Positions 41,525 through 63,784 of a stretch of 64,000 bases of DNA are shown one piece after another. The notes below the pieces were generated by a model, which was given only the letters and a program-made list of their open reading frames with translations, searched no databases and had not been told where the DNA came from. Within the stretch, counting starts at the first letter, position 1, and every line of letters begins with the position of its first letter. The DNA is from a virus (Duplodnaviria > Caudoviricetes), in IMG/VR virus record IMGVR_UViG_3300019373_000210, positions 3,520 to 67,519 of that record, one strand, 5' to 3'. The position numbers and the translations under genes are program-made.

Positions 41525-41556
41525 GTCCTTCTCCTTTTTTCGCTGTCGTACATTAC

Positions 41557-42123: not shown

Positions 42124-42142
42124 TCTGTCTCTTAATACCCCA

Positions 42143-42781: not shown

Positions 42782-42832
42782 AAAAACTCCTTTCTCCTCG
42801 ATTTGGTTTATGTCGCATTGATTTTGCTTTGC

Positions 42833-43465
42833 TTAATTAACCCTGAGCCCAAATCTGCTTGCAATTTCGCTAACGCTGTTATCGTAAGTCGGCTGTCCGA
42901 TAGCCCCGAACTTCCATTCGCCGTTATGGCGATAGACTTCGCCAAAGACCATTGCTGTATATCCCGAATAGTTCTCATTCAGGTCATAACGGCAGAGCTC
43001 TCGGTTGGTGTCTGCATCGACCAGACGAATGAAGCAGTTCCTAATCATGCCAAATTGCTGATTGCGTTGCTTGGCCTGATAAATTGTTACGACGAAAACG
43101 ATTTTCTCGTACATTGCGGGCACGGCAGCCAGATTGACCAGAATCTGTTCGTCGTCGCCTTCGCCAGCTCCTGTTAAGTTGTCTCCCTGGTGAACGACAG
43201 TGCCGCTGGAATGGATGAGGTTTCCGTAATACACGACGTCTGCAACATTGTTTATGCTGCCGTTGGAAATCAGGAAAGCCGAAGCATCGCAGTCGATGTC
43301 CTGTTTAGGAGCGCTGGGTCCGCTGAAAAGCCCGCCAAAGAGTCCGCCACTGCGCTGTGGCGCCTGATCGACTTCATCCCAGCCGAGTCCGACCATCACC
43401 CCCCTCAAACCGGCATTGCCTTTGGTCAAATCGACCTTTTGGCCCTTTTGCAAATTGACGCCCAT
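42833..43465 (-). CDS. terD: TerD/TerZ-family protein
   Basis: LQKGQKVDL, VGLGWD, GDNLTGAGEGDDEQI. Confidence 0.92.
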   Translation of the reverse strand: MGVNLQKGQKVDLTKGNAGLRGVMVGLGWDEVDQAPQRSGGLFGGLFSGPSAPKQDIDCDASAFLISNGSINNVADVVYYGNLIHSSGTVVHQGDNLTGAGEGDDEQILVNLAAVPAMYEKIVFVVTIYQAKQRNQQFGMIRNCFIRLVDADTNRELCRYDLNENYSGYTAMVFGEVYRHNGEWKFGAIGQPTYDNSVSEIASRFGLRVN

Positions 43466-43487: not shown

Positions 43488-46139
43488 TTAATCGTTCTTA
43501 TGAGTTGCGTTCCAAATCACCTTGCGGATGAGATCCACGGGAATGATGGAAATCGCCAACACGAGGACGAACGCCCATTCTTGGACGTTGAGGCCATAAC
43601 AACGGAAAATCGCACCGCCGAAATAGGTCATCAAAACTTGGACCACGACGATGAGCGCGATGATCTTCAAGAATCCCTTGTTGCCACTGATATTGTCGAA
43701 AAGATTCATCTGATCGGTGCGTGCGTTAAACGCATTGAACACAGATATGAAAATGAAGAAACAGAAATAGCCTGTCAGTAAGTAGCCGTTATCTGGCGCT
43801 TCGCGGAAAATGCTATGCGAGAACGGCGTAAGAAGGACAATCATGCTGAGGGCAAAAGTCCAGAGCGCTCCGGTGAGGATTGCCGACCACATGTACCCGT
43901 TAACAATCTTCTCGTCGCGGCGTTTCGGTTTCTCTTGCATGAACCTACGCAACGCAGGCTCCCCGCCGAGAGCGAGTGCAGCAAGCGTGTCCATGACAAG
44001 ATTCACCCAGAGAATCTGCGTAATAGAAAGCGGGTTCGCCATTCCGATGAGTGGGAACACAAACGAAACGAGCACTGCCGCAACGTTAATCGTGAGCTGG
44101 AAGATGATGAATTTCCTGATGCTGTTGAAAATAGTGCGGCCATAGAGCACGGCCTTCTCGATCGAGCTGAAGTTGTCGTCCAGGATGACGATTTCTGCTG
44201 CTTCCTTCGCGACCTCCGTGCCGCCGCCCATGGCGAAGCCCACATCGGCGCGCTTCAGCGCCGTCGAATCGTTCACGCCGTCGCCGGTCATGCCGACGAC
44301 CAGGTTCTGGTCCTGGGCCACCTTGACGAGGCGGCTTTTATCGCTCGGGAGGGCGCGGGCGATGACCCGGATGTCGGACAGCTTCGCGGCAAGCTCTTCG
44401 TCTGTCATTTCTTGTAGCTCGGCCGATGTCAGGACGAGGTTCTTCGGGTCGTCGATCAATCCGGCGTCCTTGGCGATAGCCTCGGCGGTCTCGCGGCGGT
44501 CGCCGGTGATCATCACTACCTGGATGCCGGCGCTGCGCGCCTCCTTGATTGCGGAAATGGATTCCGGTCGTATCTCGTCGCGGATTCCAACTAGGCCCGC
44601 AAGCGTCCAGCCGAAATCGCTCAGCATGCCGTCGGAAATAGATCCGTCGTAATGGGCGAAGGCGAGAACGCGCATAGCCTTCTCGGCCAAGGCGTCGATA
44701 GCCGCATTGAGGGCGTCGACATTCAACGGAACTACGTTTCCATCTGCGTCAAGTCCATTCGCACATTTCGGAAGGATCATCTCAGGCGCGCCCTTGACGT
44801 AAACCCGATTTGTTCCGCCTTCGGCGATTTCGACGGCAGAGTACTTCTGCTCGCTGTTGAACGGTATTTCGTTAACGGGATCAATCGATTCCGCAACAGC
44901 ATTGGCCACAAAGTTCAGCAGCGCACGTTCGGTGGCGTTTCCGCCGACAGGTACGGGCTTTCCCTCATGGCTCGTGAGGATAGCTTCGGTATTTTGGAGC
45001 GAGTTCTGCACGAATACGCTGCGGATAGAATCGGGAATCGTTTCCAAAGAATCGTATTTCTTGCAGTTCACGTCGATGAACGACACGACTTCGAGCTGGC
45101 CTCTTGTGATCGTTCCGGTCTTATCGCTGAACAAGATGTTCAGACTGCCGGCGGTCTCGATGCCGTTGATCTCGCGTACAAGAACGTTGTCCTTGAGCAT
45201 TTTGCCCATGTTCATGGACGAGACGAGGGCGATCATGAGGGGCAGGCCCTCGGGAACGGCCATAACGATGATGATAACGGCGAGCATGACTGCTTCGACG
45301 ATGTCGTTGATGACCACCATCGGATTCGAGCAGTAGCTGGCGATGGCCGCCATGTCGAACCCGTTCTGAAGCACGATTGCCTGGAACAGGTAGGCGAGGG
45401 CGATAGCTACGCCGCCGATGTAGCCGAAGCGGCTGATGCCCTGGGCCAAGTCGGCCAGCTTCACCTGAAGCGGCGTTTGCCTATCGTCATCCTGCTGAAG
45501 CTCGTTCGCTATGGTTCCGTAAATGGTGTTATCGCCAACCTTTGCGACATGCAGAACCGCGCTGCCAGAGCAAACGATGCTCCCCCTGTAAAGGTCATGC
45601 GGCGTCAGGAAGTCGATGCTGTCCCCTTGCTGGTACCCCTCTGGGGCAGCCGTCTTCTTCGCCTCTTTCGCCTCTCCGTTCAGGACGGATTGGTCTACGG
45701 CCAGACCGCCGTCGATAAGGTACCCGTCGGCAGGAACCTTGTCGCCAGACTGGAGGAGGACCGCATCGCCAACGACGATTTCATCGATGTGAATCTCTTC
45801 GACTTCACCATCACGGTAAACCTTGCAGACGATGCGAGAGGCTTCCTCCTGCAGCTTCTGGAAGGCGCCTTCGTTCTTGTATTCCGAGTACGTCGAAACG
45901 AACGTGGCGATTATCACTGCTACGGCAATGCCCACCGATTCGTACCATTCGGTTTGGCCGAAGAAGGTGAGGATGACGTTGATGATGAGGGCGACAACCA
46001 GAATCTTGATCATGGGATCGCCGAAGTTGTCTTTCAGCTTCGACCAGAAGGATTCACGCTCAACCTCCGACAGCGCATTCGTACCGTATTGGCGTCTAGA
46101 TTCTTCGACTTCCTGCGTCGTCAAACCAAACTTTGCCAT
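43488..46139 (-). CDS. Ca2+-translocating P-type ATPase (type II)
   Basis: VPEGLP, DKTGT, KGAPE, MITGD, TGDGVND; start ATG 46139 with GGAGG RBS. Confidence 0.93.
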   Translation of the reverse strand: MAKFGLTTQEVEESRRQYGTNALSEVERESFWSKLKDNFGDPMIKILVVALIINVILTFFGQTEWYESVGIAVAVIIATFVSTYSEYKNEGAFQKLQEEASRIVCKVYRDGEVEEIHIDEIVVGDAVLLQSGDKVPADGYLIDGGLAVDQSVLNGEAKEAKKTAAPEGYQQGDSIDFLTPHDLYRGSIVCSGSAVLHVAKVGDNTIYGTIANELQQDDDRQTPLQVKLADLAQGISRFGYIGGVAIALAYLFQAIVLQNGFDMAAIASYCSNPMVVINDIVEAVMLAVIIIVMAVPEGLPLMIALVSSMNMGKMLKDNVLVREINGIETAGSLNILFSDKTGTITRGQLEVVSFIDVNCKKYDSLETIPDSIRSVFVQNSLQNTEAILTSHEGKPVPVGGNATERALLNFVANAVAESIDPVNEIPFNSEQKYSAVEIAEGGTNRVYVKGAPEMILPKCANGLDADGNVVPLNVDALNAAIDALAEKAMRVLAFAHYDGSISDGMLSDFGWTLAGLVGIRDEIRPESISAIKEARSAGIQVVMITGDRRETAEAIAKDAGLIDDPKNLVLTSAELQEMTDEELAAKLSDIRVIARALPSDKSRLVKVAQDQNLVVGMTGDGVNDSTALKRADVGFAMGGGTEVAKEAAEIVILDDNFSSIEKAVLYGRTIFNSIRKFIIFQLTINVAAVLVSFVFPLIGMANPLSITQILWVNLVMDTLAALALGGEPALRRFMQEKPKRRDEKIVNGYMWSAILTGALWTFALSMIVLLTPFSHSIFREAPDNGYLLTGYFCFFIFISVFNAFNARTDQMNLFDNISGNKGFLKIIALIVVVQVLMTYFGGAIFRCYGLNVQEWAFVLVLAISIIPVDLIRKVIWNATHKND

Positions 46140-46226
46140 CAACTCGCCTCCAAACAAAAAGCGCCGCTCCTGTCCGTCGAGCCGCGCTTAGAACGTTTGC
46201 CTCTTCTAATGGTCAGAAACTCATAT

Positions 46227-46232
46227 ATTATA
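46227..46232 (-). promoter_or_regulatory. Candidate -10 box (TATAAT) for the Ter/toxin operon
   Basis: AT-rich intergenic gap upstream of the P-type ATPase; no clear -35. Confidence 0.4.
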
Positions 46233-46343
46233 CATTGTCGAGTAAGGCACATTGCCCAATCAACCCACCTTTTTGATGCTAAAATATTATTTCGCCCTAA
46301 TTTCTTCAGTCGTCATACCAGATAGCTTTAATTAATCCAGTAT

Positions 46344-48950
46344 TTATAGCAATCGCACCAGTTCTAAGAACTTGCTGAAATGGTACGCCCCCTCAAGGTG
46401 CGGGTCGCTGTTCTGGAACACCATGTAGTACCTGAACTCGTCACCGATACTGTTCTGCCACTGCCGCCCCATGCGAAGCTTCGCCCGTGTCTCCGGGTTG
46501 TTCAGGTGGTCGCCCTTCGTCTCGATCAGCAGGAGCCGCCCCTTGGCGGTGTACGCCATGAAGTCCGGGTAGTGGTTGGTCAACCCGTTTATCGCGAACT
46601 CTCGCCGGGATATGTTGCGGTGCCACCACACGATGTTGTCCAGGCCCGACAGCGCCATCATCATTTCAAGCTCGAACCCGTTTACACGCTCCTCGCTCTC
46701 GTAGAGCGACTTCGCAACGGGGTTGTCGAGCACGTCGGCCGGGCTTATCGTCTCGGCTAGTTTCCAGGACGGCTTGCAAACGATGGCGGCCCGCTCTATC
46801 TCCTCGCCGAACCGCATCGTGCAGTAATCGCGCTCCAAAGCGTCTATCTTGTCGCGGATCTTCTTCGCGTACACGGTGGGATATTTCTCGAGCGTGGCGA
46901 GCTCGTCACCCGTCATGTCCCCGACGATGCGGTCGATGTACGCCTCGAGTTCGGTAGAGCTCACCGCATCGTCCTTGTTCAGGTATTCGTGCATGATCCC
47001 CTTGCAGATGCGCACCTTGCTCTCGGGCGAGCGCCCGGAGAAGTACTGCTTGATGTAGGCGCTGTCGCGTCCCATCAGCTTCTGGGTAGAAACGCCGCCG
47101 CCCTTCATCACGTCGAGCTTGTACATGTCGAAGTCGATGGACGCGAAATCGATTCGGCTGTCAGCGCCCTTCAACGTGAACCCTTCCAGCAGGTGCGCTT
47201 GCGTCAGCAGCACTTCCTGGCTGTCGCAGAACAGGTTCCCCTCGATCGTCTTGAAGAACTGCGGCAAGGCGAGCGCGAGCGCCTGCTCCCGATACTCGAC
47301 CTTCATGCGGTACCCGTCGCCTAGGCTCGTGAAGAAGTAGCTGATTCCGGCGTCGCCCTGCGCCGACTGCGCCCTCCGCTCGTAGTCCATGGCCTCTCCT
47401 TCGGCGATGGCCGCCATGTCGCCCGCCGCGCTGCCGCCGCCGTGCGCGTGCGAGTCTATGAGCTCGGCAACCTTTCCGTCGTCCCATTCCAGGAAGTCCT
47501 CGGCTCCCGCCTCGTCATCGACCGCAAGCTGCGTTTGCTCCGGCTCACTCGGCGCCTCGTCCTCGACCAGGCCGACTAGGCCCACGTCGTGAGCGCGGTA
47601 GTCCTGCTTGCTGAAGCCCGCGCTGTTCAGCCCCGCAATCACCCGATTCACGGTCGCCTGGAAATCGGCCGACGACGTCAGCACGTAGCTCATGTTCAAT
47701 ACGGGCGTGTCGTATCGCCTCGTGAACGGCTGCCGCAGGATGCGCCCCACGACCTGCTCGACGTCGACCTGCGACGTCTTGTTCGCGAGCGTCGCCAGGA
47801 TGTACGCGTTAGGGCAGTCCCAGCCCTCCTTCAGCGCGTTCACGGTGATTATGAACCGTATCTGGCACGCCGGGTCCATCAGGTCCACGTGCCGAAGCTC
47901 GTTCACGTTCGCAGTCTTGATGGCTATCTGCTCGGCGGGTACGCCGAACTCCACCAGCTTGTCGCGCAGCTTCTCGAAGGTGGTCGAGTCCTCCTTGCCC
48001 TTGGGTTGGGCCTGGAACAGCACGATGGGGCGAATGCCCGCCTCGGAGGCCCCGGCATCGTTTCTGGCTGCCTCTTCGAGGTTCTGCCTGAAGTCGATCG
48101 CGTCTACGAGCACGTCTTCCTTGCTCGACCGGTTGTACACGACCACTGGCAGCTTCACCATGTTCTCGGCCTTGAGCTGCAGGGCGTCCACGTAGCTGAT
48201 CACGTTGCTGTTCTTCGCCGGCGTCGCCGTCAGGTCCAGCACGAAGCACGGGTTGAAGTTGTTCAGCATCTCAAGGCTCAGCGTGCTCTTCGCATGGTGG
48301 CTCTCGTCCACGATCACGAGCGGGTGCAGCTGGTTTATCACCTGTATCAGCGCCGTCTCGTCGGCCCCCTCGATGGGGGAGGCGGGCTCGCCGAGCACCT
48401 CCGCGAAGGGCATCAGGCTGCTGTTCTCCTGGTAGGCCTTGCGCCCCTCCTTCTTCCCCGCGCGGAACGAGTCGTAGCTCAGCACGAATATGCTCAGCTG
48501 CTCGCGCACGCTCGTCGGGCTGAAGTTCTGCCCGACGAGCAGCTGCGCCTTCGTGTACACCTCCACGCGCCCGCCGAAGTCCACGTCGATCTTCTGGCGG
48601 TAGGGGTGAGTCGGGTCGGATAGTGCCTTCGTCGTCTGCTCCAGGATGGCGTCCGACGGCACCAGCCACACGACCGCCCTCGCCTTCGTGAATTCGGCGG
48701 AGTCGAAAATCGGCTTCAGGGCGTTGCAGGCCAGGAAGGTCTTGCCACCGCCGGTGGGCACCTTGAAGCAGACGTGCGGGGCGCCGGCCACGGTGTCGAC
48801 GTACGCCGGTATCCTCGACCCGCCGACCGCCACGCCGCGAAGCGCCCAGTAACTCTTGTAGGCCGCCGCCGCGTCGTGCGTGTCCGCCAGCTCCGCCAGG
48901 TAGGAGCGGAGGTCCTTCATCACCCTGCGTTGATATCTCTTGAGCTCCAT
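46344..48950 (-). CDS. res: Type III restriction subunit (SF2 helicase + PD-(D/E)xK nuclease)
   Basis: KVPTGGGKT, IVDESHH, LKEGWD, GRILR, YPDF..LIETKG. Confidence 0.9.
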   Translation of the reverse strand: MELKRYQRRVMKDLRSYLAELADTHDAAAAYKSYWALRGVAVGGSRIPAYVDTVAGAPHVCFKVPTGGGKTFLACNALKPIFDSAEFTKARAVVWLVPSDAILEQTTKALSDPTHPYRQKIDVDFGGRVEVYTKAQLLVGQNFSPTSVREQLSIFVLSYDSFRAGKKEGRKAYQENSSLMPFAEVLGEPASPIEGADETALIQVINQLHPLVIVDESHHAKSTLSLEMLNNFNPCFVLDLTATPAKNSNVISYVDALQLKAENMVKLPVVVYNRSSKEDVLVDAIDFRQNLEEAARNDAGASEAGIRPIVLFQAQPKGKEDSTTFEKLRDKLVEFGVPAEQIAIKTANVNELRHVDLMDPACQIRFIITVNALKEGWDCPNAYILATLANKTSQVDVEQVVGRILRQPFTRRYDTPVLNMSYVLTSSADFQATVNRVIAGLNSAGFSKQDYRAHDVGLVGLVEDEAPSEPEQTQLAVDDEAGAEDFLEWDDGKVAELIDSHAHGGGSAAGDMAAIAEGEAMDYERRAQSAQGDAGISYFFTSLGDGYRMKVEYREQALALALPQFFKTIEGNLFCDSQEVLLTQAHLLEGFTLKGADSRIDFASIDFDMYKLDVMKGGGVSTQKLMGRDSAYIKQYFSGRSPESKVRICKGIMHEYLNKDDAVSSTELEAYIDRIVGDMTGDELATLEKYPTVYAKKIRDKIDALERDYCTMRFGEEIERAAIVCKPSWKLAETISPADVLDNPVAKSLYESEERVNGFELEMMMALSGLDNIVWWHRNISRREFAINGLTNHYPDFMAYTAKGRLLLIETKGDHLNNPETRAKLRMGRQWQNSIGDEFRYYMVFQNSDPHLEGAYHFSKFLELVRLL

Positions 48951-48959
48951 TTGCGCCGC

Positions 48960-50546
48960 CTAAAGCCGTGCGATGTCTCGCGGGATCTTCTTGAACGTTA
49001 TGCCGAACTCGGCCAGCTCGTCTTCGGACAGGCTGCAGGTGTCGGCGTAGATCACGTAGCCCTCCTGCCGCTCCGTTATCGTCGAGAGGAACGCGTAGTC
49101 GAGCGCCGTGGCAGCGTCCGGCACGTAGTGGAAGTAGTAGCCCGTGCCGTTCGAGTCGCCGAGGTGGTAGGGGTTGCCGCCCTCGGGCGGCTCGAAGGAG
49201 CGCCCCGTCTCCGTGTACCACACGTAGGCGCGTATGCGCTCCGCCCCGACCGCCTCGTTCAGGTTGCCGTCCTCCTTGAACATGCGCTCTCCCAGCTCGT
49301 AGAAGCCGAATGATCCGCCCGTGCCTTCTACTGCCTTCTTGCCTTCGCCGTACCCGTCGATGACGCGCCTCACGCGCTCGGCGGTGATGCTGTCGGCGTA
49401 GTCCATCATCTCGACGAGGATGAACCTACGGTTGCCGCCATCGGACTTGTTCACGTTCAGGACGGCATGCGCCGTGGTGCCGGAACCGGCGAACGAGTCG
49501 AGCACGATGGAGTCCTTGTCGGTCGCAATCTGCAGGATCCGCTCGATGAGGCGTGTGGGCTTGGGGTAGTCGAACACGGCCTTCCCGAGCATCGACGCGA
49601 GCTCCTGCGTTGCCTCCTGCGTGTGCCCGACCTCGGTGTTCGGCCACCAGGTCCAGGTGGTCTTGCCAGGCTTGTCGCGAAGATAGTTCTTCTGCCTCGG
49701 GACACCGTCGCCCGACTCGCCGAACCACAGGCGGCCGCTGTCCCTCAGCTCCTCGTAGACCGAGTACAGGTTCTTCCAGCAGCGGCCCTCCGGAGGCCCT
49801 ATCACCTTGCCGGACGGCGTCTCTATCTCGTACATCTGGTTCGGCCTGAAGCCCTGCGCCGTGAAGTCAACGGAAACCCACGGCCCGTTCGGGTCTTTGT
49901 CCGGGTTCCTGTACTTCTTGGCGTCGTCCTCGCTCAGCGGGACCAGGTTGAGCACGGCTTCGAGGTCGGAGGCGTCCTTCGCGTAAAGGACGATGTATTC
50001 GTGGCCGTTGCTAATCCGCTTCCTGGCGTCGGGAGACGTTCGTTTTTGCCAGATGATGGTCCCGACGTAGTTGCTCTTCCCGAATATCTCGTCGCAGATG
50101 AGCTTCAGGTTCGCGTACTCGTTGTCGTCTATGCTGATGAAAATCGCGCCATTGTCGGCGAGCAGCTTGTAGAGCAGCCGCAGACGCGGGTACATCATGC
50201 AGAGCCATTTGTCGTGGCGGCTAAGGTCCTCGTCTTCGGAGCCGACAACCTCGCCAATCCACTTGCGAATCTTCGGGTCGTTCACGTTGTCGTTGTAGAC
50301 CCACCCCTCGTTGCCGGTGTTGTAAGGCGGATCGATGTACACGCAAGACACGCGCCCCTCGTACTCGGGAAGCAGCGCCTTCAGCGCTTCGAGGTTGTCC
50401 CCGTGGATGACCATGTTGCCCGAATGGGAGCTGCCGTCGTTCTCGCTGGATTCATCGTATTCGTATACGCAGTCGAGCGTCCGAAGCGGCACCTCAAGAT
50501 GGTGGTTGATAACCTTGTTCTTTCCAATCCATTCGAGCGTGGGCAT
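48960..50546 (-). CDS. mod: Type III adenine DNA methyltransferase
   Basis: IHGDNLEALK, IDPPYNTG, YPKP, VLDSFAGSGTT; start ATG 50546 with GGAGG RBS. Confidence 0.92.
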   Translation of the reverse strand: MPTLEWIGKNKVINHHLEVPLRTLDCVYEYDESSENDGSSHSGNMVIHGDNLEALKALLPEYEGRVSCVYIDPPYNTGNEGWVYNDNVNDPKIRKWIGEVVGSEDEDLSRHDKWLCMMYPRLRLLYKLLADNGAIFISIDDNEYANLKLICDEIFGKSNYVGTIIWQKRTSPDARKRISNGHEYIVLYAKDASDLEAVLNLVPLSEDDAKKYRNPDKDPNGPWVSVDFTAQGFRPNQMYEIETPSGKVIGPPEGRCWKNLYSVYEELRDSGRLWFGESGDGVPRQKNYLRDKPGKTTWTWWPNTEVGHTQEATQELASMLGKAVFDYPKPTRLIERILQIATDKDSIVLDSFAGSGTTAHAVLNVNKSDGGNRRFILVEMMDYADSITAERVRRVIDGYGEGKKAVEGTGGSFGFYELGERMFKEDGNLNEAVGAERIRAYVWYTETGRSFEPPEGGNPYHLGDSNGTGYYFHYVPDAATALDYAFLSTITERQEGYVIYADTCSLSEDELAEFGITFKKIPRDIARL

Positions 50547-50704
50547 TAACGCTGCCTCCAATACCTCCGTCATCCAGGCAATCGAATTATAACGCCGATG
50601 AAAACGCCATCACTCGGCCATATGCGGCTGCCTTCAATCGAGACAGAAGGCGTTTGCCCGCGTTCGCGGTACATCGGAACCACGCTTGCAGCGTTATACG
50701 GTTT

Positions 50705-52199: not shown

Positions 52200-52394
52200 C
52201 TATCGCGCCAGGCGCGTGCGCCTCTCGTGATAGGTGGCCCGCCAGTCCGCGCAGATGGCTTTCGCTTCCTCAGCCCTTAGGTTCGGAAACTCCCGCACGA
52301 GGTACGCTGCCGCCAGCACCGTGTTCACCTCGCCGCTATCGCGTAATGCATCCAGGAAGGCGAAGTAATCGCCGTCTGGCACCAGGCTACGCAT
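52200..52394 (-). CDS. Small conserved-looking phage protein, 64 aa
   Basis: YFAFLDALRDSGEVN...AYLVREFPNL..EAKAICADW; start overlaps the yhcG stop. Confidence 0.6.
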   Translation of the reverse strand: MRSLVPDGDYFAFLDALRDSGEVNTVLAAAYLVREFPNLRAEEAKAICADWRATYHERRTRLAR

Positions 52395-53460
52395 CCTCTT
52401 CACCGCTCGCTAGCGCCCTGCGCTCATTGGCCTCGATGGCCATGCGAACTTGTTCAGCCAGCTCCTCTTCATCGGGCATGACCGTCACATAAGTCGAGGC
52501 GAAGATCCGGTTCTCCAAGCCGCCCAGCGCATAGTGAGCATCGATGTTCCGCTTGTCGGTGCACAGGATGATGCCGATGGGCGGGTTGTCGAACTCGTCG
52601 TTGACCTCCTCGGCGTAGTAGTTCAGGTAGGCGTTTATCTGGCCGACGGCGGACGCCATGAGCTTCGACGTCTTGAGTTCGATGAGGACGTAGCTCCGCA
52701 GCAGCTTGTTGTAGAAGACCATGTCGACGTAATTGTGAACGTTGCCGATCGTCACGCGCTGCTGTGTGCCGACGAACCAGAACCCGCGCCCGAGCTCGCG
52801 CATGAACTTCTCGATTTGCGCCACGAGGGCCGCTTCCAAGTCGCTTTCCATGGGCGGCTCGTCCTCGGGAAGGTCCAGGAATTCGAGAACGTAAGGCTCG
52901 CGGATGATGTCTGCGGGATCGCGGGGAACGACGCCCTCGTTAGCCAGGGCCAACACGTGCTCTCGCCTCGCCTCGTCCTTCGCCTTCAACAGGCGCTCGA
53001 ACAGCAGGCTATCCATCTGGCGGCGCATCTCGCGCACACTCCACCCCGAATTCGCCGCTTCATGTTCGTAGAAGCTGCGCCTCTGCGGGTCGCTGACGCT
53101 CATGAGCTCGCAGTAGTGGGTCCATGTCAATTTTCCAGTCACTGACTGGAAAATCTGATGCTCGTTGTAGAACTGCCTCATGTTGTACAGGTTAGTCATG
53201 GAGTAGCCGCGCCCGAGCTCCTTCGTCAATCGCCTCGACAGCTGCTTGATCGTCTGGTCGCCGTATTCCGCACGATCCCTGCCGCGCAGCTCGTAAACCA
53301 CGATCATGCGGCCGTTCAGCCAGTACGAGAGAAGCTGCGTTCGGTTCGTCTCGCGGGCGACATGCCTTTTCGCCGCCCTGTCGACTTTCTTGATGCCCTC
53401 AACCAAGTCCTCGAACGTCTCGGGGTCAACGCTCTCGCGCTCTATGGTCGCAAGCGCCAT
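52387..53460 (-). CDS. yhcG: YhcG/DUF1016 PD-(D/E)xK nuclease
   Basis: YWLNGRMIV, YGDQTIKQLS, LTWTHYCEL, FYEHEA, WSVREM, REPYVLEFL, VDMVFYNKLLRSYVLIELK, GQINAY, PPIGIILC; probable start ATG 53460. Confidence 0.92.
   Translation of the reverse strand: MALATIERESVDPETFEDLVEGIKKVDRAAKRHVARETNRTQLLSYWLNGRMIVVYELRGRDRAEYGDQTIKQLSRRLTKELGRGYSMTNLYNMRQFYNEHQIFQSVTGKLTWTHYCELMSVSDPQRRSFYEHEAANSGWSVREMRRQMDSLLFERLLKAKDEARREHVLALANEGVVPRDPADIIREPYVLEFLDLPEDEPPMESDLEAALVAQIEKFMRELGRGFWFVGTQQRVTIGNVHNYVDMVFYNKLLRSYVLIELKTSKLMASAVGQINAYLNYYAEEVNDEFDNPPIGIILCTDKRNIDAHYALGGLENRIFASTYVTVMPDEEELAEQVRMAIEANERRALASGEEDA
53130..53154. repeat. 25-bp palindrome inside yhcG
   Basis: ATTTTCCAGTCA-C-TGACTGGAAAAT, perfect 12-bp arms; encodes IFQSVTGKL. 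Confidence 0.9.
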
Positions 53461-53471
53461 GTCTCCATCCG

Positions 53472-53500
53472 AGATTTTCCAATCACTGACTGGAAAATCT
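53472..53500. promoter_or_regulatory. Second copy of the yhcG palindrome at operator position
   Basis: 53474-53500 matches 53130-53156 at 26/27 nt; lies 14-38 nt upstream of ATG 53460. Confidence 0.65.
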
Positions 53501-53667
53501 TGGGAGTTGCCATTATCTGCCGGCTGGCCCATCTTTTCCTCCACTCCAATTCCACCACCACTGGCGGCAGAAATCCGTTTCCGCTAAATGATAGCCCATT
53601 GCACGTTGCTTGAGCCAAACCGGGCGGGCCGCGAACTCTCCAGACAGGGTTTGGAATATCTTGAAGG

Positions 53668-55359
53668 TTACGCATTGGAAATCGCCGCCAACTCAGCCGC
53701 CCTCTCTTCCGCTACCTCGGACGATTCCGCATACCATTTCGACCTGAACTCGGCAACCGTCATGGTCACGCCGACCTCGGCTAAGTCCTGTTTCTTTTCT
53801 TGGAAAGTGTCGACAATAATCGAGTCATCGAATTCCACGCGGATTGCGCCTTCATGGGGAAGTTCGATGCCGAAACCTCGCGCGATGTGGAGAAGGGCCC
53901 GCGCGATGCCGGCGATTGACTGTTCCAGTAAATGCTCGTGCCGCGCGATGTTGCGCATAAGCGCGCTGTTGTCGCTTGACACCTCGGTCGCGGTCTTCAC
54001 GTACCCAGTGCTGTCGAAGTCGAAGTACATGATCCCGAGCCCGCACAGGTCTCCGAGCATCTGGAGCGATATGCGCAAGGCTTCGACCTGTGAAGCCGTG
54101 CGAAGCGGGGGCGCGAACTCCTGAATCATGTCATCGGTACTCATGACCTTACGGAAAACGGTGCAATCCTGCTTCCCGAAGGGAATGGAAACCCGCTTCT
54201 TGCCGTCCCTCTCCTTGTCGAAGAGAACATCCGAGAGGAAGACCCTCATCTTGCTCACGTCCACTTCATTGATCATCGCGTCGAAAGCCAAATCAACCGC
54301 TTGGATCGCATCAACGGCATCCGCGAAGATAGATTGCCCGTAAGGACTCATGTCAACGCGCGTGTTCTCTATCGCCGGCTTGACGAGCGAGAAGGTGGGG
54401 AAAGGGCAACCCGTGTCGTATTCCGCGCAGATGCCCTCTGGTTGTATTTCGCTCCCATCTTCATCGAACAGCACCGTGATGATCTTGTACGTGGGGAAAG
54501 TGTCGGTTGGCGACGCCCCGGCACAGCCATCGTCGGCTCTCGATTTAGAAAGCGAAGATTCGGAAAATCCTTCTGCATTTCCATGGGAAGGTGAAGATGC
54601 GGAAGACGATGCAGCGTTGCAACTGTTTCCAGCTTCAGATTGCGAAGGTGAAGCCGAGCTCGCGTTTCCATGCGAAGAAGATGGCGAAAACGCCGCTCCG
54701 ATGCTTCCATGTGAAGGCGAGGAAGGGGAAAGTCCCAGCGCTTGTAAGGATTGGGAAAGGGAAGATGGAGAAGGTGAATCTGTGGAAGGCTCCACCCCGT
54801 CTCCACCCCCGAGCAGGTGCATTTGAAGCTGGTCCACGGCCTGCCCACGGTAGAACGCCCGCGTGACGAAGGCGCATTCCGTGACATGTTCTTCATCCCA
54901 GCTCAGGGGAATGACCATCCTCGCATCGTACCGCCGGATGCGAACGTCTTTCCTGTCTGCGTCGATCCACAGCGCCCACGCGCCGGTCCCCATGCCGAAC
55001 GCCCTAACCACAGTCGCTTGCGCCGAGGGAAAGAACCCGGTCTGGGTGAAGTATTCCTGCAGCCAGTCCGTGCACTCCTGGCTCTCGCATACCACCTGCG
55101 TCTTGTCGTTGAGAAGCAGCGAGCCCCACTCCCTGCAGACGCGCATCGCCGGCCGGATCGAGCGCCTATGTACCTCGTACAACCGCCCAAATCCATCCGA
55201 GTCGCGATAGTCATAGAAAGTCCCTTTGGACTGCATCCACCCGTGCCAGCTGCGTATGTATTCCTCCATGGGCTCCAGGGGATGGCGAAACCCCAGCCCG
55301 CGCAAGTACTCTCGCACGTGCTCCGGCACCCAGTACTCGACCTCTTCTATCTTGCTCAT
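53668..55359 (-). CDS. SPP1-type portal protein with a Ser/Pro-rich insertion
   Basis: RVCREWGSLL, GMGTGAW, PYGQSIFADA, LGDLCGLG, TATEVSSDNS, EFDDSII; start MSKIEE at 55359. Confidence 0.9.
   Translation of the reverse strand: MSKIEEVEYWVPEHVREYLRGLGFRHPLEPMEEYIRSWHGWMQSKGTFYDYRDSDGFGRLYEVHRRSIRPAMRVCREWGSLLLNDKTQVVCESQECTDWLQEYFTQTGFFPSAQATVVRAFGMGTGAWALWIDADRKDVRIRRYDARMVIPLSWDEEHVTECAFVTRAFYRGQAVDQLQMHLLGGGDGVEPSTDSPSPSSLSQSLQALGLSPSSPSHGSIGAAFSPSSSHGNASSASPSQSEAGNSCNAASSSASSPSHGNAEGFSESSLSKSRADDGCAGASPTDTFPTYKIITVLFDEDGSEIQPEGICAEYDTGCPFPTFSLVKPAIENTRVDMSPYGQSIFADAVDAIQAVDLAFDAMINEVDVSKMRVFLSDVLFDKERDGKKRVSIPFGKQDCTVFRKVMSTDDMIQEFAPPLRTASQVEALRISLQMLGDLCGLGIMYFDFDSTGYVKTATEVSSDNSALMRNIARHEHLLEQSIAGIARALLHIARGFGIELPHEGAIRVEFDDSIIVDTFQEKKQDLAEVGVTMTVAEFRSKWYAESSEVAEERAAELAAISNA
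54570..54790 (-). repeat. Degenerate SPSHG-type repeats inserted in frame in the portal gene
   Basis: Core TTCCATG(G/C/T)GAAGGTGAAG on the plus strand; peptide SPSSPSHG / SPSSSHGN / SSPSHGN. Confidence 0.8.
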
Positions 55360-55384
55360 GTCAAAGCTCCAATCCATCAAGTTT

Positions 55385-55850
55385 TAGAAGGTGAAAATGC
55401 AGAAGGCGAAGGCCATCCCCGCTTTCCATGCGAAGGTGAAGAAAGGGAAGGCGAAACCCAGCCCCGTTTTCCATGGGAACACGAGGATTCGGAAGATGAA
55501 GCCCAAGCTCGCTTTCCGTGCGAAGGTGAAGGTTTGGAAGGTGACGTCCGGTCTCGCATTCCATGGGAAGGTGAAGGTGCGGAAGGTCCCGCCCATCCAG
55601 GCCATTTGCTTTCAGGAGGTGAAAATCCCGCCCGTTTCCATGGCGAAGGTGGCGAAAATGCCGCCCGGTTCCAAACTCAAGATTTGGAAGGTGAAGCCGA
55701 GCCCCGTTTTCCATGGGAAAAGCCCGCCCGTAACCATGGCCATGCAGAAGATTTGGAAGGTGAAGGTGAGGAAGGGGGAGGCGAAGCCCATGCCCTGGCT
55801 TCGCCTCCTTGCCTTCCATGGGAGGGTGAAAGTTCGGAAGATGACGCCCC
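55385..55850. repeat. Degenerate 45-bp-period repeat array between terL and portal
   Basis: Units start at 55421, 55466, 55511, 55556; further partial units to about 55845; same core as the portal insertion. Confidence 0.85.
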
Positions 55851-55851
55851 A

Positions 55852-57138
55852 TCATGCACCCCTCAAGGCGTCGTCCATGCAGGCGTAGCGCACGGCGTCG
55901 ATGGAATGGTCGTTGCCGTCGGGGATGTTGTCGATCCAGTTCCCTTCCTTGTCGCGCTCGAACTCCTTCAACGTGAACTCGGCGAAGGTGAGCGGGCAGC
56001 GCTTGGAGTCGATGACAATCTCCCGCAGCCCCGCCAGCCATTCGTACGAAAGCCGCCTCATCCGGGCCTTCCGCGCCGCGTGGATCCGGATGCCAAGGTC
56101 GCGGCGGTACGTCGACATCTGCACCTTTGAATCCGGTGTGTCGTCGCAGTACACGATCTGGTCGTGGAAGTAGGGCTCTCCGCCCTCCTCGTCGGCGTAG
56201 GTCAGCGAATCCACCACGATCTGCCCGGTCTCCGCCGGCATCATCTTGTTGGCCGAGTGCTCCTCGAACACCAGCAGCCGCCGAGCGCCAGGCTCCCAGG
56301 CGCAGCGAACGAAGCGCCACGGATCCGGAAACCAGCCCCAGTCGATCCCGTTGCGCACGCGCTCGAAGTTGCGGATGCGCGAGTCGGAAAGCCTCGCGTC
56401 GTGAACGTTGTCGAATACGGCGCCGCCGGTGCCGACGATCTCTCCCAGGTACTCCCAGCGCCAGGCCGTCTCGTTCGTGTCGCGAAGGTACTCGGCCTCC
56501 TCGATGAATGGCGCGCCCAGCCATTCCGGATGAGACTCGATTACGTCAAGGTAAGACGAGCCGCGAACCAGGGTGTCATCCCTGCGCTTGCGTTCCAGCA
56601 GCTCCACGTTCACCCAGGACCACATCGTCTTCGGCGGGTTATACGAATAGAACACCCAGAAGCGGTCCCCGCCACGGCGAAGCGAGTTCAGGATCGAGCG
56701 CACGGCGTCCAGACCCTCGAACTGATCGAGCTCTTCGAACCAGATCCCAGCACAATACCCCCTCGTGAACTTCACGCCCTTCAGCTTCAGCGGGTCATCG
56801 GCCCCCCGGAAGACGATGCGCTGCCCGGTCGGCGTGTACACGATCTCCATGGGCGATACCTTCGCCCGGAATACGCTGTCGAGCCCCAGGACCTCGATGG
56901 CCCACAAGACCTGCTGGTAGACCGAATCGCGAAGGGTGTTGCCGAACCGGCGCACCACCACGGCGTTCGTCTGCGGGAAGGCGATGATCAGCATCACCAG
57001 GCACACGGATATAAACGAGCTCTTCGTCGAGCCGCGCCCACCGTGAAGCCAGTAGTGGGTATGCCCGTGGGCCATCACGTCGGAAAGCACGGGATGGAAG
57101 CGCTCGATGACGTAGTCGCTAACCTTCGTCACGGCCAT
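55852..57138 (-). CDS. terL: Terminase large subunit, PBSX family
   Basis: GGRGSTKS, VVVRR, IWFEE, YSYNPP, IDWG, DHSIDAVRY; start ATG 57138. Confidence 0.93.
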   Translation of the reverse strand: MAVTKVSDYVIERFHPVLSDVMAHGHTHYWLHGGRGSTKSSFISVCLVMLIIAFPQTNAVVVRRFGNTLRDSVYQQVLWAIEVLGLDSVFRAKVSPMEIVYTPTGQRIVFRGADDPLKLKGVKFTRGYCAGIWFEELDQFEGLDAVRSILNSLRRGGDRFWVFYSYNPPKTMWSWVNVELLERKRRDDTLVRGSSYLDVIESHPEWLGAPFIEEAEYLRDTNETAWRWEYLGEIVGTGGAVFDNVHDARLSDSRIRNFERVRNGIDWGWFPDPWRFVRCAWEPGARRLLVFEEHSANKMMPAETGQIVVDSLTYADEEGGEPYFHDQIVYCDDTPDSKVQMSTYRRDLGIRIHAARKARMRRLSYEWLAGLREIVIDSKRCPLTFAEFTLKEFERDKEGNWIDNIPDGNDHSIDAVRYACMDDALRGA

Positions 57139-57592
57139 CGCCGTCACCTCCGTCCCATTTCTCGCCCTCGTTGGCCTTGGCGCCAGCATCCTCGTCCTCG
57201 TCGGTCATGACCTCCAGTTCTAGGCCAAGCGTCAGCTGCACGGGCTCGTCGGCCTTCTCCTCGCGCCGGTCGGTCTTGCCGAACTCCAGCGGGTACTTGC
57301 GTTCGAGCAGCCAGGCAGCCGCCGTCCAGTGCTGCGGGCGCATCGACGCGTTTCGTATCGTGACCAGGAGGTTCTTCTTGTAATCGACCTCGGCCTTTTT
57401 TAGTTGGTCGCATAATGCGCGTTTCGCAGACCCGGCGCGAGCGTCCTCGCCCTCCTTCAGCCAGCGGTAGAAGGTAGACTTGTGGACGCCCAGCGCCTTG
57501 ATGATGTCGGCGTCGCAGAGGCCGTCCTTCTTCAGGGCGACCGCACGGTCGACCATCTCGTATGTCAGCTTCGTCTTTCTCATGCCGGGCAT
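57119..57592 (-). CDS. terS: Terminase small subunit (HTH)
   Basis: IIKALGVHKSTFYRWL HTH, HWTAAAWLLERKYP; directly upstream of terL. Confidence 0.75.
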   Translation of the reverse strand: MPGMRKTKLTYEMVDRAVALKKDGLCDADIIKALGVHKSTFYRWLKEGEDARAGSAKRALCDQLKKAEVDYKKNLLVTIRNASMRPQHWTAAAWLLERKYPLEFGKTDRREEKADEPVQLTLGLELEVMTDEDEDAGAKANEGEKWDGGDGDGRDEG

Positions 57593-61271: not shown

Positions 61272-62360
61272 ATGGTCGTCGAGGACATGGTCCAGCAGGC
61301 CTTCTACAACGGCAGCGCCGTCGGCGACGTGACGTTCTCCGACGTGCTCATGCTCGTGGGCGAAGACGCGGGGATCCCGGAGGTCGCCCAGCGCTTCGAG
61401 GGGGCCGACCTCCTGCCCGATTACCTGTCCGCGCGCGCGAGGTCACTGCTGTCGCTGCATGGGACGTTCGGGGAGGGCGCGGCCGCCGCGCATGCCAAGT
61501 ACACGGAGCTCCTGAAGCTGCGTGTTGATGATGCGGAGGGGCGCGAGCGGGATCTTGAGACGCTTCGCATGTTCGTCCGCGAGGCCTTCGCCCTGTTCGA
61601 GCTCCTTCAGAACGAGGAAGAGCACCCGGTGACGTCTGCGACGCTCGACGCGCACGGGATAGCCCGGGCCCGCAACGGGAAGGGCAAGGTCGACCTGACC
61701 GCTAGCTACCTGCTGCCGGCATGCGATTACCTGCAATTCCTCTCGGATGGCTGCGACACGCTTTCGGCTCGCCCGTTCTTCTGCGATTGCCGCGTGGAGC
61801 CGCTGGATTCGGATGACGGACGCGATGCCGTTCTGGGGTGGTCCGCCAACAGGGGCGGCGCACGCATGTCGTTCACCGTGCACGGACTGCCCGCAAACGA
61901 TGCTGGATCTAAGCGGTTCATGGGCTACCTGCTCAAGTTCCTGCTCGACGTGCACCTGCACGACGTCCAAGTCGTCACCTACGACACCGGCAAGCAGCTG
62001 TGCGTGGCCAAGCACGCGGTTGCCGCCACATGGGTCTGCCTGCGCGAAGAGCTCTCCGGCGCCCGCGCCGGCGTCTGCCGCGTGTGCGGCAAGCCCTTCA
62101 TCGCGTCCAACGAGCGCAAGGAGAAGGCCCGCTACTGCCAGCAGGGAGGCACCTGCGCCAAGGCGTTCGCCCGCGCGCGCAAGGTGCTCGGGGCAGTCAA
62201 CGAGGGCTCCGACCTGGAAGACGCGCTCGACGGAATCGGCAAGATCAGCCGCCGCAAGCTCGCCGACATAGCGAGTCGCAACTACTACGTGCTGTCGTTG
62301 GAATTCCCCAACGTGGACATGGAGACGCTAGAGCGGAAAGGAGGCGACGCCCGAAAGTAA
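61272..62360 (+). CDS. Regulator with C-terminal CGNR-like Zn finger, in the repressor position
   Basis: ATG 61272 after AAGGAGG RBS; CRVCGKPF..KARYC..TC..AFAR; divergent from cro. Confidence 0.7.
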   Translation: MVVEDMVQQAFYNGSAVGDVTFSDVLMLVGEDAGIPEVAQRFEGADLLPDYLSARARSLLSLHGTFGEGAAAAHAKYTELLKLRVDDAEGRERDLETLRMFVREAFALFELLQNEEEHPVTSATLDAHGIARARNGKGKVDLTASYLLPACDYLQFLSDGCDTLSARPFFCDCRVEPLDSDDGRDAVLGWSANRGGARMSFTVHGLPANDAGSKRFMGYLLKFLLDVHLHDVQVVTYDTGKQLCVAKHAVAATWVCLREELSGARAGVCRVCGKPFIASNERKEKARYCQQGGTCAKAFARARKVLGAVNEGSDLEDALDGIGKISRRKLADIASRNYYVLSLEFPNVDMETLERKGGDARK

Positions 62361-62413
62361 ACAGGCACCACCGGCAACGTAAACCACGATTCAAGGAAAG
62401 GAGAGAAGAAGAA

Positions 62414-63784
62414 ATGCCACGTAAGAAAAAGAAGAAGCAGCGTGAAACGTACGGAGACGGGTCTATTACCCCGAAACTTGGTCCTGACGGCACTCAGAGG
62501 TTCGACCGCAAAGGTCAACCCGTCTGGCAGGTCAGCGTTTTTCTAGGCGAAGAGCAGTACGTTGACGCCAACGGCAAAACCCGGAAACGCCAGAAGCGGG
62601 TCAGGCGCGATTACCACGGAACGTTAGCCGGAGCTCGCAAATTTAAGGACGACCTCGCCGACCAATACGAAAACGTCGACCTTGAAGCAGCGGAAGGTTC
62701 CTTCGAGTGGACTTATAAGAAGTGGTTGACAGCCATGCGCAACGCGAATATTGCTAGCGCGGAAGTTATCAAGTCATACGAGACGCGTCTAGGCTATATG
62801 TCGAAACAGTTTGGCGGTAAAGCGATTATCGAGATAACGGCAACGGATGTTGACGATGCTATTGCGGCGATAAGGACCGAAAGAAACCTCTCGAATACCA
62901 CGCTTCATAAAGTGTTCGCTGTTACAAAGCGGGTTTTCGACTTTGCCATAACGCGCGACTGGCTGGTAAAGAATCCTTGCGCTGCAGCAATGTCCCCGAA
63001 AGAAGACGAGGTGACGAACCGCAACTCTCTTTCAGCCGCAGACGGCGCCAAGCTGCGCTCAAAGTTGGACGAGAGCGAGCTAGAAGCGTATGAAAGCTTC
63101 TCCGCCAAAGAAGAGCGCCAGAAGCTCAACGGAAAGTCAAAGGGCCGCTCTTGCGTGCGCGGCATCAGCGGAATAGCAAGCATAATCGCCATCAGAATCA
63201 TGCTTGCCACTGGCATGCGTCGCGGCGAAGTGTGCGGCCTCGTCTGGGGCGCCGTCAACTTCGAGAACGGCCAGATTTGCGTCAGGCAGTCGCTCACCGC
63301 TCGTGTGAAGGTGAAGACCACCAAAACCGAAAGCGGCATCAGAAGGCTTGCTATAGACGCCGATACGATTGCCCATCTGCTCAAGTGGAAGGCATTCCAG
63401 GCCGAAGCCCTAAACAAGATCATGGTCGATGGAGCCTGCGTCTCCCAGGACGAGGACACGCCCATCGTGTGCAACGATCTGGGCAACTGGCTCGATCCCA
63501 CAAACCTTGGTCGCTGGTGGGACAAGTATCGCCAGACCATCGGGTTCCCCACGCTCAAAATGCACGAATTGAGGCATACACAAGCCACAATGCTCATCGG
63601 CAATGGCGCCGATATCAAGACCGTGGCCCATCGCCTCGGACACAAGAAAGAGACTCTGACTCTCTCCCAATACGCCCACGCGATTCCCGCGAACGACAAG
63701 GCCGCAGCCGATCTTATCGGCTCGCTCTTCGGCCAACCCTCCAATGCCGGTTCCGGCGTCAAATCCTTTAAGAGAACTGCTTAG
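62414..63784 (+). CDS. int: Tyrosine integrase
   Basis: GDGSI arm-binding start; TGMRRGEVCGL, KTTKT, HELRHT, RLGH, TLSQYAH catalytic residues; start ATG 62414. Confidence 0.95.
   Translation: MPRKKKKKQRETYGDGSITPKLGPDGTQRFDRKGQPVWQVSVFLGEEQYVDANGKTRKRQKRVRRDYHGTLAGARKFKDDLADQYENVDLEAAEGSFEWTYKKWLTAMRNANIASAEVIKSYETRLGYMSKQFGGKAIIEITATDVDDAIAAIRTERNLSNTTLHKVFAVTKRVFDFAITRDWLVKNPCAAAMSPKEDEVTNRNSLSAADGAKLRSKLDESELEAYESFSAKEERQKLNGKSKGRSCVRGISGIASIIAIRIMLATGMRRGEVCGLVWGAVNFENGQICVRQSLTARVKVKTTKTESGIRRLAIDADTIAHLLKWKAFQAEALNKIMVDGACVSQDEDTPIVCNDLGNWLDPTNLGRWWDKYRQTIGFPTLKMHELRHTQATMLIGNGADIKTVAHRLGHKKETLTLSQYAHAIPANDKAAADLIGSLFGQPSNAGSGVKSFKRTA

Follow-up and report, generated by a model that had tools for sequence, protein, structure and literature searches.

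Why should a nuclease gene carry a palindrome within the codons of its own predicted DNA-binding head, and what reads it? The question is raised by a yhcG (DUF1016) gene in a stretch of 64,000 nucleotides of viral DNA (Duplodnaviria; Caudoviricetes) from the IMG/VR record IMGVR_UViG_3300019373_000210, whose full length is 67,519 bases. The whole stretch is referred to below as the window, and all coordinates are positions in it. The palindrome occurs twice at this gene, and a palindrome at the same place is found in relatives of yhcG across phyla. The explanation that we favour, with moderate confidence and from sequence comparison and structure prediction, is that the palindrome is the cognate duplex DNA site of YhcG itself, bound by a homodimer through a ParB-like helix-turn-helix head. 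The features of the gene that the argument needs are these:

52387-53532, minus strand: YhcG/DUF1016 gene, 381 codons plus stop, with a predicted ParB-like N-terminal DNA-binding head and a C-terminal PD-(D/E)XK nuclease domain
53538-53542 and 53530-53532, minus strand: likely ribosome-binding site (RBS) GGAGG and start ATG, as read from the sequence
53474-53500: copy 2 of the palindrome, 26/27 identical to copy 1 (24/25 over 53474-53498), candidate cognate site 2
53460-53462, minus strand: in-frame ATG lying 3' of copy 2, preceded only by GGAG at a spacing of 2 nt
53161-53262, minus strand: codons of the predicted helix-turn-helix, residues 91-124 (helix 91-106, turn GRGYS, helix 112-124 MTNLYNMRQFYNE)
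53185-53187, minus strand: Tyr116 codon TAC, the recognition-helix residue that tracks palindrome base -8
53130-53154: copy 1, the internal palindrome, perfect 12-1-12, ATTTTCCAGTCA-C-TGACTGGAAAAT, candidate cognate site 1
53119-53121, minus strand: Thr138 codon ACC, the x of W-x-H-Y, which tracks base -3
52450-52911, minus strand: PD-(D/E)XK nuclease domain (Pfam YhcG_C) with D...E-x-K intact

An earlier reading of this DNA, here called the original prediction, had described a perfect palindrome at 53130-53154 encoding IFQSVTGKL and a 26/27 copy at 53474-53500, and both were confirmed, the first by reading the sequence and by a dyad search. Read on the minus strand, copy 1 gives IFQSVTGK(L) of the YhcG open reading frame (ORF), the loop that joins the predicted recognition helix to the W-T-H-Y helix. 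Copy 2 differs from it solely by G to A at 53482, and its dyad has 11/12 arm pairs with a G.T mismatch on the coding strand. The centres of the copies (53142 and 53486) are 344 nt apart. With up to 3 mismatches allowed, only these two copies matched in the window and likewise in the whole record, and 100 dinucleotide shuffles gave no palindrome match (mean 0.00, largest 0); a chance origin of the two copies is ruled out by the empty shuffles and the record-wide uniqueness. A 275-nt contig (run X2, record 10) matches only the 34 nt around copy 2 (53467-53500), with 3 differences and unrelated flanks on both sides, and probably represents the palindrome in a different yhcG allele from the same sample.

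The gene belongs firmly to its family. Pfam DUF1016_N (PF17761) matched at 133.1 bits (cut-off 32.8, E 9.1e-39) and YhcG_C (PF06250) at 175.1 bits (cut-off 32.5, E 1.2e-51), the PADLOC candidate defence family PDC-S02 was matched (PDLC04807, E 2.1e-122), and residues D274, E289 and K291 (385-aa numbering) are invariant among 25 aligned sequences including the window protein. Searches of viral_contigs by protein and by exact pattern found no close relative, and a single metagenome scan returned 8 loci, all of at most 65% identity.

According to the original prediction, copy 2 lies at an operator position upstream of a start codon at ATG 53460, and this was not borne out. The open frame on the minus strand spans 52387-53544, and ATG 53530-53532 stands 5 nt from GGAGG. 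The closest database protein (P0001, 99% identical, 381 amino acids) begins MGQPADNG at that ATG, and in relatives L132, L133, L089/L136 and L137 a GGAGG-ATG is followed by an open frame running through the palindrome into the domain. The N-terminal tail carries a motif that is kept in 21/25 aligned homologues, P-D-x-x-W-x-I in most and F-P-V-S-D-W-K-I in the clade of the window. Because of the GGAGG, the frame kept in relatives and the conserved tail motif, copy 2 is placed inside the coding sequence; the real start is likely ATG 53530-53532, and ATG 53460-53462 is probably an internal methionine. Copy 2 then occupies about codons 12-20, some 45 nt into the coding sequence, where it encodes DFPVSDWKI one frame off copy 1, in a tail whose residues 1-25 are disordered in the AlphaFold2 model (predicted local distance difference test, pLDDT, about 33).

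The embedded palindrome is a constant of the family. Of 80 genome loci, mostly from Firmicutes and with 53-64% protein identity, 79 have a palindrome, centred on the same codon, in the DNA that aligns to IFQSVTGK; this bears out, here and across phyla, the proposal that the in-gene segment is palindromic in homologues. The variants are compensated between the arms (TTCCAGTC..GACTGGAA, TTCCAGAC..GTCTGGAA, TGCCAGAC..GTCTGGCA, AACAGAC..GTCTGTT and TGTCCAGAC..GTCTGGACA), and even the synonymous choice of the Gly codon, GGA or GGC, tracks the Phe or Cys codon on the opposite arm. A Coriobacteriia clade (43% identical) and a 28% identical paralogue (15+15) carry a palindrome of unrelated sequence, as do, at the same position, a Salmonella-type gene, the Wolbachia phage WO and gut phage contigs. 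Palindromes at this position were also found in Geobacter, Elusimicrobia, Bacteroidota, Verrucomicrobiota and one Methanosarcinales archaeon. In E. coli the palindrome is a perfect 18-3-18, stronger than any other in the 4 kb locus.

An unbiased scan for the strongest perfect palindrome per gene in 121 loci placed it at this position in 85 and elsewhere in 12, with none of at least 7 pairs in the other 24. Among 83 non-redundant loci, 11.5 of 14 arm pairs were complementary as against 6.1 after synonymous re-encoding (same peptides, each gene's own codon usage, 500 per locus), and in 78 of them the observed score was reached by at most 5 of the 500 re-encodings. Across an ungapped alignment of 79 sites, all 13 pairs change on both sides, paired cells amount to 88.6% compared with 24-38% for slid partners, and the covariation score was reached by 0/500 shuffles; two mis-handled rows (L040 and the mis-centred L118) stay in and count as misses. 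As a control, the equivalent loop DNA of ParB genes held a palindrome of at least 6 pairs in 0/6. Selection acts on the embedded palindrome at synonymous sites, that is, at the DNA level.

The reader of these sites must be local, because the 79 sequences contain 35 half-site variants and, in the genomes compared, the variant is confined to yhcG. In five genomes of different genera (3.2-7.6 Mb) sharing one variant, the 19-mer was present once each, inside yhcG, and the sole other match was an unrelated site with 2 mismatches. A dispersed repeat or regulon site is ruled out by the one copy per genome in these five. The embedded arrangement appears to be new as far as the searchable literature goes: an intragenic palindrome is absent from the accessible text of the DUF1016/YhcG papers searched, including PMC9881135, PMC4316617, PMC7967276 and PMC13734603, a coverage that leaves subscription journals and supplements outside.

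Second copies are much rarer. Of 142 distinct testable loci, 12, from Firmicutes, Coriobacteriia and Cytophagales, had a matching copy in the range of 300-420 nt upstream, at -325 to -389; each such copy has the locus's own variant, and several lie in non-coding DNA. About 122 of the 142 have just one site, placed in mid-gene. Only in Firmicutes (L039, L059, L124, L127, L077 and L028) and Cytophagales (L169) is the equivalent copy intergenic in the strict sense, where it stands directly 5' of the RBS or about 40-60 nt before the start codon. For the closest relatives the comparison used a peptide proxy, with codons inferred: the tail motif is missing from 75 of the 120 closest proteins; of the 20 distinct contexts with the motif, 17 match the internal site at the outer position, 2 do not and 1 could not be scored, with the centre matching in 14/15 and 4 contexts half-changed. 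The 5' copies of the closest proteins P0001-P0007 (70-99% identical) were likewise judged from peptides only. The idea that an upstream copy co-varies with the internal one thus stands wherever such a copy is present (12/142; 17/20 by proxy), but the upstream copy is a minority trait and the internal copy is the constant.

A further 8 loci have tandem internal copies 39-48 nt apart. Tandem palindromes of the same core lie inside the gene in L151, L152, L119, L160, L162-L164, L166 and L168; such genes belong to Elusimicrobia, Bacteroidota, Verrucomicrobiota and one gut phage, and in tandem loci the permissive loop is duplicated together with the site. The E. coli YhcG protein has a tandem IPQTPSAE / IWQTLSAKS unit. 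In E. coli GF60 (L179:2572-2596), 16 nt past the yhcG stop, a 12-1-12 palindrome ATTCTCCAGACA-C-TGTCTGGAGAAT has the CAGAC..GTCTG core in common with the internal 18-3-18 site and differs from it in the outer arm. An antisense non-coding RNA, G0-10703, overlaps the yhcG 5' region according to the accessible part of PMC7967276. The upstream palindrome of L028, at -389, is the only upstream copy followed by TTTTT, after which comes a TATAAT-like box; to judge by this sequence it may also serve to terminate the preceding gene. In L039, L059, L124, L127 and L077 a small gene ends just before the upstream palindrome. The C-terminal peptide of this small Firmicutes gene resembles, we presume, small XRE-type helix-turn-helix regulators.

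The shape of the symmetry favours a dyad of some 27 bp that is read as duplex DNA. By pair, complementarity among the 79 loci is 72-77 at pairs 2-8 and 57 at the innermost pair, where 24 are expected; the count drops to 42-43 at pairs 10-11, returns to 76 at pair 12 and falls to chance beyond pair 14. At core pairs 2-12 the non-Watson-Crick cells comprise 9 GT/TG against 18 AC/CA. A duplex site is preferred to an RNA hairpin because the symmetry reaches the centre and the mRNA strand lacks G.U tolerance. Pairs 1 and 13 do show a G.U bias (15 cells each), which by our reading of the codons falls at A/G third-codon positions of the left arm and which we do not count as evidence for RNA.

Two residues of YhcG follow single base pairs of the site. 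Residue 116, in the predicted recognition helix, differs in 16/16 independent contrasts at pair 8 and in 0/16 controls. With T at base -8 it is Tyr in 20, Phe in 3, Trp in 3 and Ser in 3 (n=29); with G, Gln in 21, Lys in 5, Arg in 3 and Ala in 2 (n=31); with C, Glu in 6, Trp in 1 and Ser in 1 (n=8); and with A, Gln in 6 and Leu in 2 (n=8). The helix motif was not found in 11 loci, and E. coli L179, read by eye, has Arg at this position with base G. Tyr, Phe or Trp with T, Gln, Lys or Arg with G and Glu with C are classical amino-acid-base preferences, and the residue-116 pairs are in line with them. In 15/15 independent close pairs with a change at pair 3, residue 138 differs as well, against 0/15 same-state controls; across distinct contexts base -3 is A with Ser in 45/45, T with Thr in 16/16 and G with Thr in 13/13, and bases -2 and -4 do not partition by residue 138. 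The claim that site and reader change together therefore survives as a correlation between the bases of the palindrome and the residues that flank it, whereas the encoded loop need not be the reader: the covarying residues 116 and 138 lie in the flanking helices and not in the loop.

The predicted structure places these residues in a plausible DNA-binding head. An AlphaFold model (mb82c58d819fe) built from a 76-sequence alignment has a mean pLDDT of 72.9, with 84-94 in the N-domain, and supersedes a poor one from 25 sequences (pLDDT 55). The palindrome-encoded loop is a surface loop (model residues 125-136, pLDDT about 90), followed by helix 137-143, which starts W-T-H-Y. For residues 65-171 the sole fold match is the DNA-binding region of Spo0J/ParB (1vz0, Z 5.5, root-mean-square deviation (rmsd) 3.3, 88 aligned, 20% identity). 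Pfam HTH_ParB (PF17762) scores 13.5 bits, under the cut-off of 22.6 (E 0.08), and hhalign against six ParB proteins, without L174 (ORF on the wrong strand), gives E 6.2e-4 and a probability of 28% over 71 columns, pairing YhcG KLTWTHYCELMSVSD...WSVRE with ParB QITGGHARALLSVED...LSVRE. No ParB/Srx (CTPase) domain was matched by Pfam on the whole of YhcG at E up to 0.01, and for that reason YhcG is not classed as a ParB but only as sharing its type of DNA-binding head. The C-domain matches the folds of AdnA nuclease (Z 8.9, rmsd 3.6, 90 aligned), NucS (Z 8.4, rmsd 3.1, 95 aligned) and BpuSI (Z 8.1, rmsd 4.0, 114 aligned). A sequence search found no solved structure of the YhcG family.

PMC7383237, in its accessible part, describes two-fold symmetric contacts of Caulobacter ParB with parS, made by the recognition helix and helix alpha-6; the inner base pair 6 is read by G201, which is Arg in Noc, and R204 makes a conserved contact. 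Thr138 of YhcG aligns to the G-H-A-R glycine of ParB (Caulobacter G201), and Tyr116 aligns at or beside the conserved base-contacting Asn of the ParB recognition helix, with one alignment gap there. A homodimer prediction scored 0.71 and the highest of 3 controls 0.00; proteins solved as one-chain pairs attained the mark in 20/30 cases and those solved as single chains in 1/23, counts that are only rough because our own alignment was used. In the dimer runs contact agreement was at least 69% and partner pLDDT at least 70, with a symmetric interface at residues 27-110. These predictions support, though they do not show, homodimer pairing by YhcG.

Taken together, the proposed mechanism would run as follows. 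YhcG would dimerise symmetrically through the long helices of its N-terminal domain; the recognition helix (112-124) of each subunit would read the outer bases of a half-site, and the start of the next helix (W-T-H-Y, 137-140) the inner ones. The site would sit in the DNA that codes for the tolerant loop between these two reading elements. Reader and site would be inherited together because both lie within about 70 bp, and the encoded peptide would look hypervariable because the loop DNA carries the site. In the window a second site would lie 344 bp upstream in the disordered tail, and in other lineages just 5' of the RBS. The most likely purpose would be to let a potentially toxic nuclease control itself independently of its promoter, through a roadblock and, at genes with two sites, also through looping. 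Binding by YhcG, the geometry of binding and, above all, the regulatory purpose are what we infer from the patterns above.

Several considerations weigh against this explanation. The likeness to ParB is weak by every single measure, with Pfam below cut-off, hhalign at 28% and a Z of 5.5 that is common for helical domains. The residue-base correlations could reflect contacts within the protein, a reading that arises because the palindrome also encodes residues 128-133, and only the chemistry of the pairs argues against it; Arg116 with an Arg codon and Glu with Ser fit base contacts better than packing, which is an argument and not a test. The contrasts are independent pairs, short of a full phylogenetic test. 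Block transfer of a short cassette could also link residues to site: one close relative of the same length, from an independent run, has diverged exactly over 53037-53236 (residues about 99-165) with flanks that still align. Simple block linkage is argued against by synonymous variation in the residue-138 codons and by the looser link (12/15) of the residue in between (L-x-W). For an operator, a single mid-gene site, as in most loci, is an unusual place, and no sigma-70-like promoter was found near the gene in a scan that perhaps does not cover host-type promoters. Finally, a nuclease that binds its own gene could equally be cutting it.

The last point leads to an alternative that we regard as unlikely, in which the palindrome is a cleavage or recombination target, of YhcG's own nuclease or of a host enzyme, with deletions or exchange of the reading-head segment. 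It still needs recognition of the site, and differs from the self-binding explanation in what follows binding. The PD-(D/E)XK motif is intact, and in two metagenome contigs homology stops 5-25 nt from the left edge of the palindrome: in L129 yhcG is 5'-truncated, with unrelated DNA in place of about 115 codons, and in L131 a remnant of about 85 nt is left. The relative that has diverged over 53037-53236 between aligned flanks speaks for it as well. DUF1016 genes are also enriched beside targets of programmed inversion according to the accessible text of PMC9881135, but there the enrichment concerns neighbouring restriction-modification (RM) genes and not yhcG. Against such an activity, breakpoints occur in 2 of about 165 loci only, most loci have a single copy, and no contig joins 53142 and 53486 in runs X2, X6, X7 and X11, with the qualification that contigs hide rare forms and that uncovered parts and the RNA-library contigs of X11 are no evidence of absence or of transcription. 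A deletion between the copies would lose the frame because 344 nt is not a multiple of 3. No dedicated recombinase stands beside the repeats, the nearest integrase (62000-63784) being 8.5 kb off, and homologous loci with two copies have unrelated neighbours. The original prediction had allowed that the second copy might be a template or recombination site, for which little was found: two breakpoint cases, and no joined forms in four runs, seen as contigs only.

We consider it improbable that the site has no reader and that quasi-palindrome correction, through intramolecular template switching as the DNA replicates, keeps its arms alike in a permissive loop. Such a process would give concerted changes in both arms and could reach the centre, and the encoded segment is indeed a surface loop. 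It leaves unexplained the matching second copies near the start codon in three phyla, some of them non-coding, as well as the dip and recovery of the symmetry profile and the residues outside the dyad that track single base pairs; loss of the palindrome in 1/80 loci only suggests selection.

A hairpin in yhcG mRNA acting in stability, processing or translation control, with the 5' copy as a second hairpin or long-range partner, is very improbable. With folding energies of -15.9 kcal/mol (z -3.8) and -19.6 kcal/mol (z -2.8), both copies are more stable than their shuffles, and the single mismatch of copy 2 forms a G.U pair in the mRNA. At both copies, however, the other strand is just as stable when folded, and folding is uninformative because both strands fold alike. 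The core shows no wobble tolerance on the mRNA strand, its complementary innermost pair is impossible in a hairpin, and structure alone needs no identical sequence in two copies. A search of the gene with Rfam 15 found no matching family, the only hits being two chance matches elsewhere to small nucleolar RNAs (E 0.76 and 9), and a terminator scan reported neither copy as an intrinsic terminator (G+C-rich stem and T run).

That another protein reads the site, such as the small upstream regulator of the five Firmicutes loci or a small downstream ORF common to the window and L132/L133, is the least probable of all, since neighbours vary among lineages (portal here, different genes in L169, L028 and E. 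coli) and yhcG is the palindrome's only constant partner.

If YhcG does read its own palindrome, the arrangement is a variant of the ParB-parS kind of protein/site pair. In ParB-parS, as in Noc-NBS and KorB-OB, a helix-turn-helix head and the following helix read a two-fold palindrome, and YhcG aligns over that region. The B. subtilis spo0J gene, we assume, has a parS site inside it too. In ParB and Noc the recognition helix reads outer bases and the residue at the G-H-A-R position (ParB G201, Noc R201) an inner base pair, as far as the accessible part of PMC7383237 describes it, and the covarying residues of YhcG lie at or next to those reading positions. Unlike ParB, YhcG has a PD-(D/E)XK nuclease in place of the ParB/Srx CTPase domain, and its site is embedded family-wide in loop-coding DNA, as in none of the six ParB genes. 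Unlike parS, the candidate site is unique to its own gene and is not clustered near an origin, and it is about 27 bp long with an odd centre.

Intragenic or auxiliary operators that act by looping or roadblock are known from lac O2 in lacZ, gal OI in galE and the PurR roadblock in purB. Like these, the yhcG site is a palindromic, operator-like element in coding sequence, sometimes with a promoter-proximal partner a few hundred bp off. There the regulator is encoded apart from the target gene that contains the operator, and conservation across phyla is lacking, whereas the yhcG site lies in the gene of the presumed regulator itself, between the codons of its reading elements. C proteins of restriction-modification systems are small helix-turn-helix dimers that autoregulate a potentially toxic nuclease operon through a palindromic C-box covarying with the C-protein family, in a similarly mobile, defence-related setting; there the boxes are upstream and non-coding and the C protein is separate, while in YhcG reader and nuclease form one polypeptide and the constant site is intragenic. 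Binding sites within the protein's own coding sequence also occur in lambda O, where dyad-symmetric iterons covary with the N-terminal specificity domain among lambdoid phages. Lambda O initiates replication and has four iterons together with an AT-rich region, but nothing at yhcG is origin-like and the chromosomal genes are single copies. Mitochondrial genes of Nematomorpha reportedly hold many perfect inverted repeats, scattered through the protein-coding sequence of one genome, unlike the yhcG palindrome, which keeps one fixed position in one gene family across prokaryotes and has matching reader residues.

The surroundings of the gene bear on what such a site might be for. On the minus strand yhcG is preceded by primase, large terminase (55852-57189) and portal (53668-55380), in that order, and followed by a small ORF, a DnaB_C-like gene, Type III RM Mod/Res and a P-type ATPase; the integrase lies at 62000-63784. 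The remaining neighbours to be named are:

52200-52403, minus strand: small 67-codon ORF, overlapping the yhcG stop by 17 nt
48960-50573 (Mod) and 46344-48950 (Res), minus strand: Type III RM pair, 1.8-6 kb from yhcG
43488-46157, minus strand: PMCA-type P-type Ca2+ ATPase, adjoining the Type III RM pair

The 67-codon ORF has no Pfam, PHROG, PADLOC or NCBIfam match, and Atlas gives only uncharacterised small phage proteins. By tblastn it recurs directly after yhcG in L132 (93% over 60 amino acids) and L133 (56% over 50); the L132 YhcG is only about 65% identical, compared with 93% for its small ORF. G+C at third codon positions (GC3) is 0.8-0.89 over 46-57 kb and 0.45-0.65 over 11-43 kb, and because of this difference the contig is taken to be a mosaic; the record, classed as viral, includes cargo or host-like genes (43488-50573). 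Promoter-independent self-control (autoregulation) of a mobile nuclease is plausible because the gene sits in a mosaic phage-like element beside RM genes and belongs to the PADLOC candidate PDC-S02.

Other features of the window were noted in passing. The portal gene (53668-55380, minus strand; phrog_533 over residues 313-564) encodes, in the N-terminal half of its protein, an insert of about 100 residues that is rich in Ser and Pro and of low complexity. In the gap between portal and terminase (55380-55900), ORFs in several frames on both strands carry short periodic peptide repeats (HGK, FPWE, HLPNL and others like them), pointing to a tandem repeat in the DNA. At 40934-43465 on the minus strand, three paralogous genes in a row, of about 210-233 amino acids, all match phrog_5698 (unknown function).

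YhcG/DUF1016 is a very large uncharacterised nuclease family, with a match in 4460/5426 complete E. coli genomes; it is common on phages, conjugative elements and RM or BREX (bacteriophage exclusion) islands and counts among the candidate defence genes. Should the palindrome be its cognate site, the family would gain a concrete, testable DNA target, and dozens of matched reader/site pairs could yield a recognition code for the ParB-type head (116 with base 8, 138 with base 3). A cis site hidden in the codons of its own reader would shape an apparently hypervariable peptide, and the 'variable loop' of DUF1016_N annotations would be constrained by DNA and not by protein function. It is possible, if doubtful, that reader and site form a co-inherited 'specificity cassette' of less than 100 bp, with the family split into many private protein/site pairs inseparable by recombination because the DNA between the codons of the base-reading elements is the sequence read. 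If that is true, each mobile nuclease gene would carry a unique self-address and could silence itself, whatever its promoter, wherever inserted, and it might tell its own allele from rival alleles on competing mobile elements or phages.

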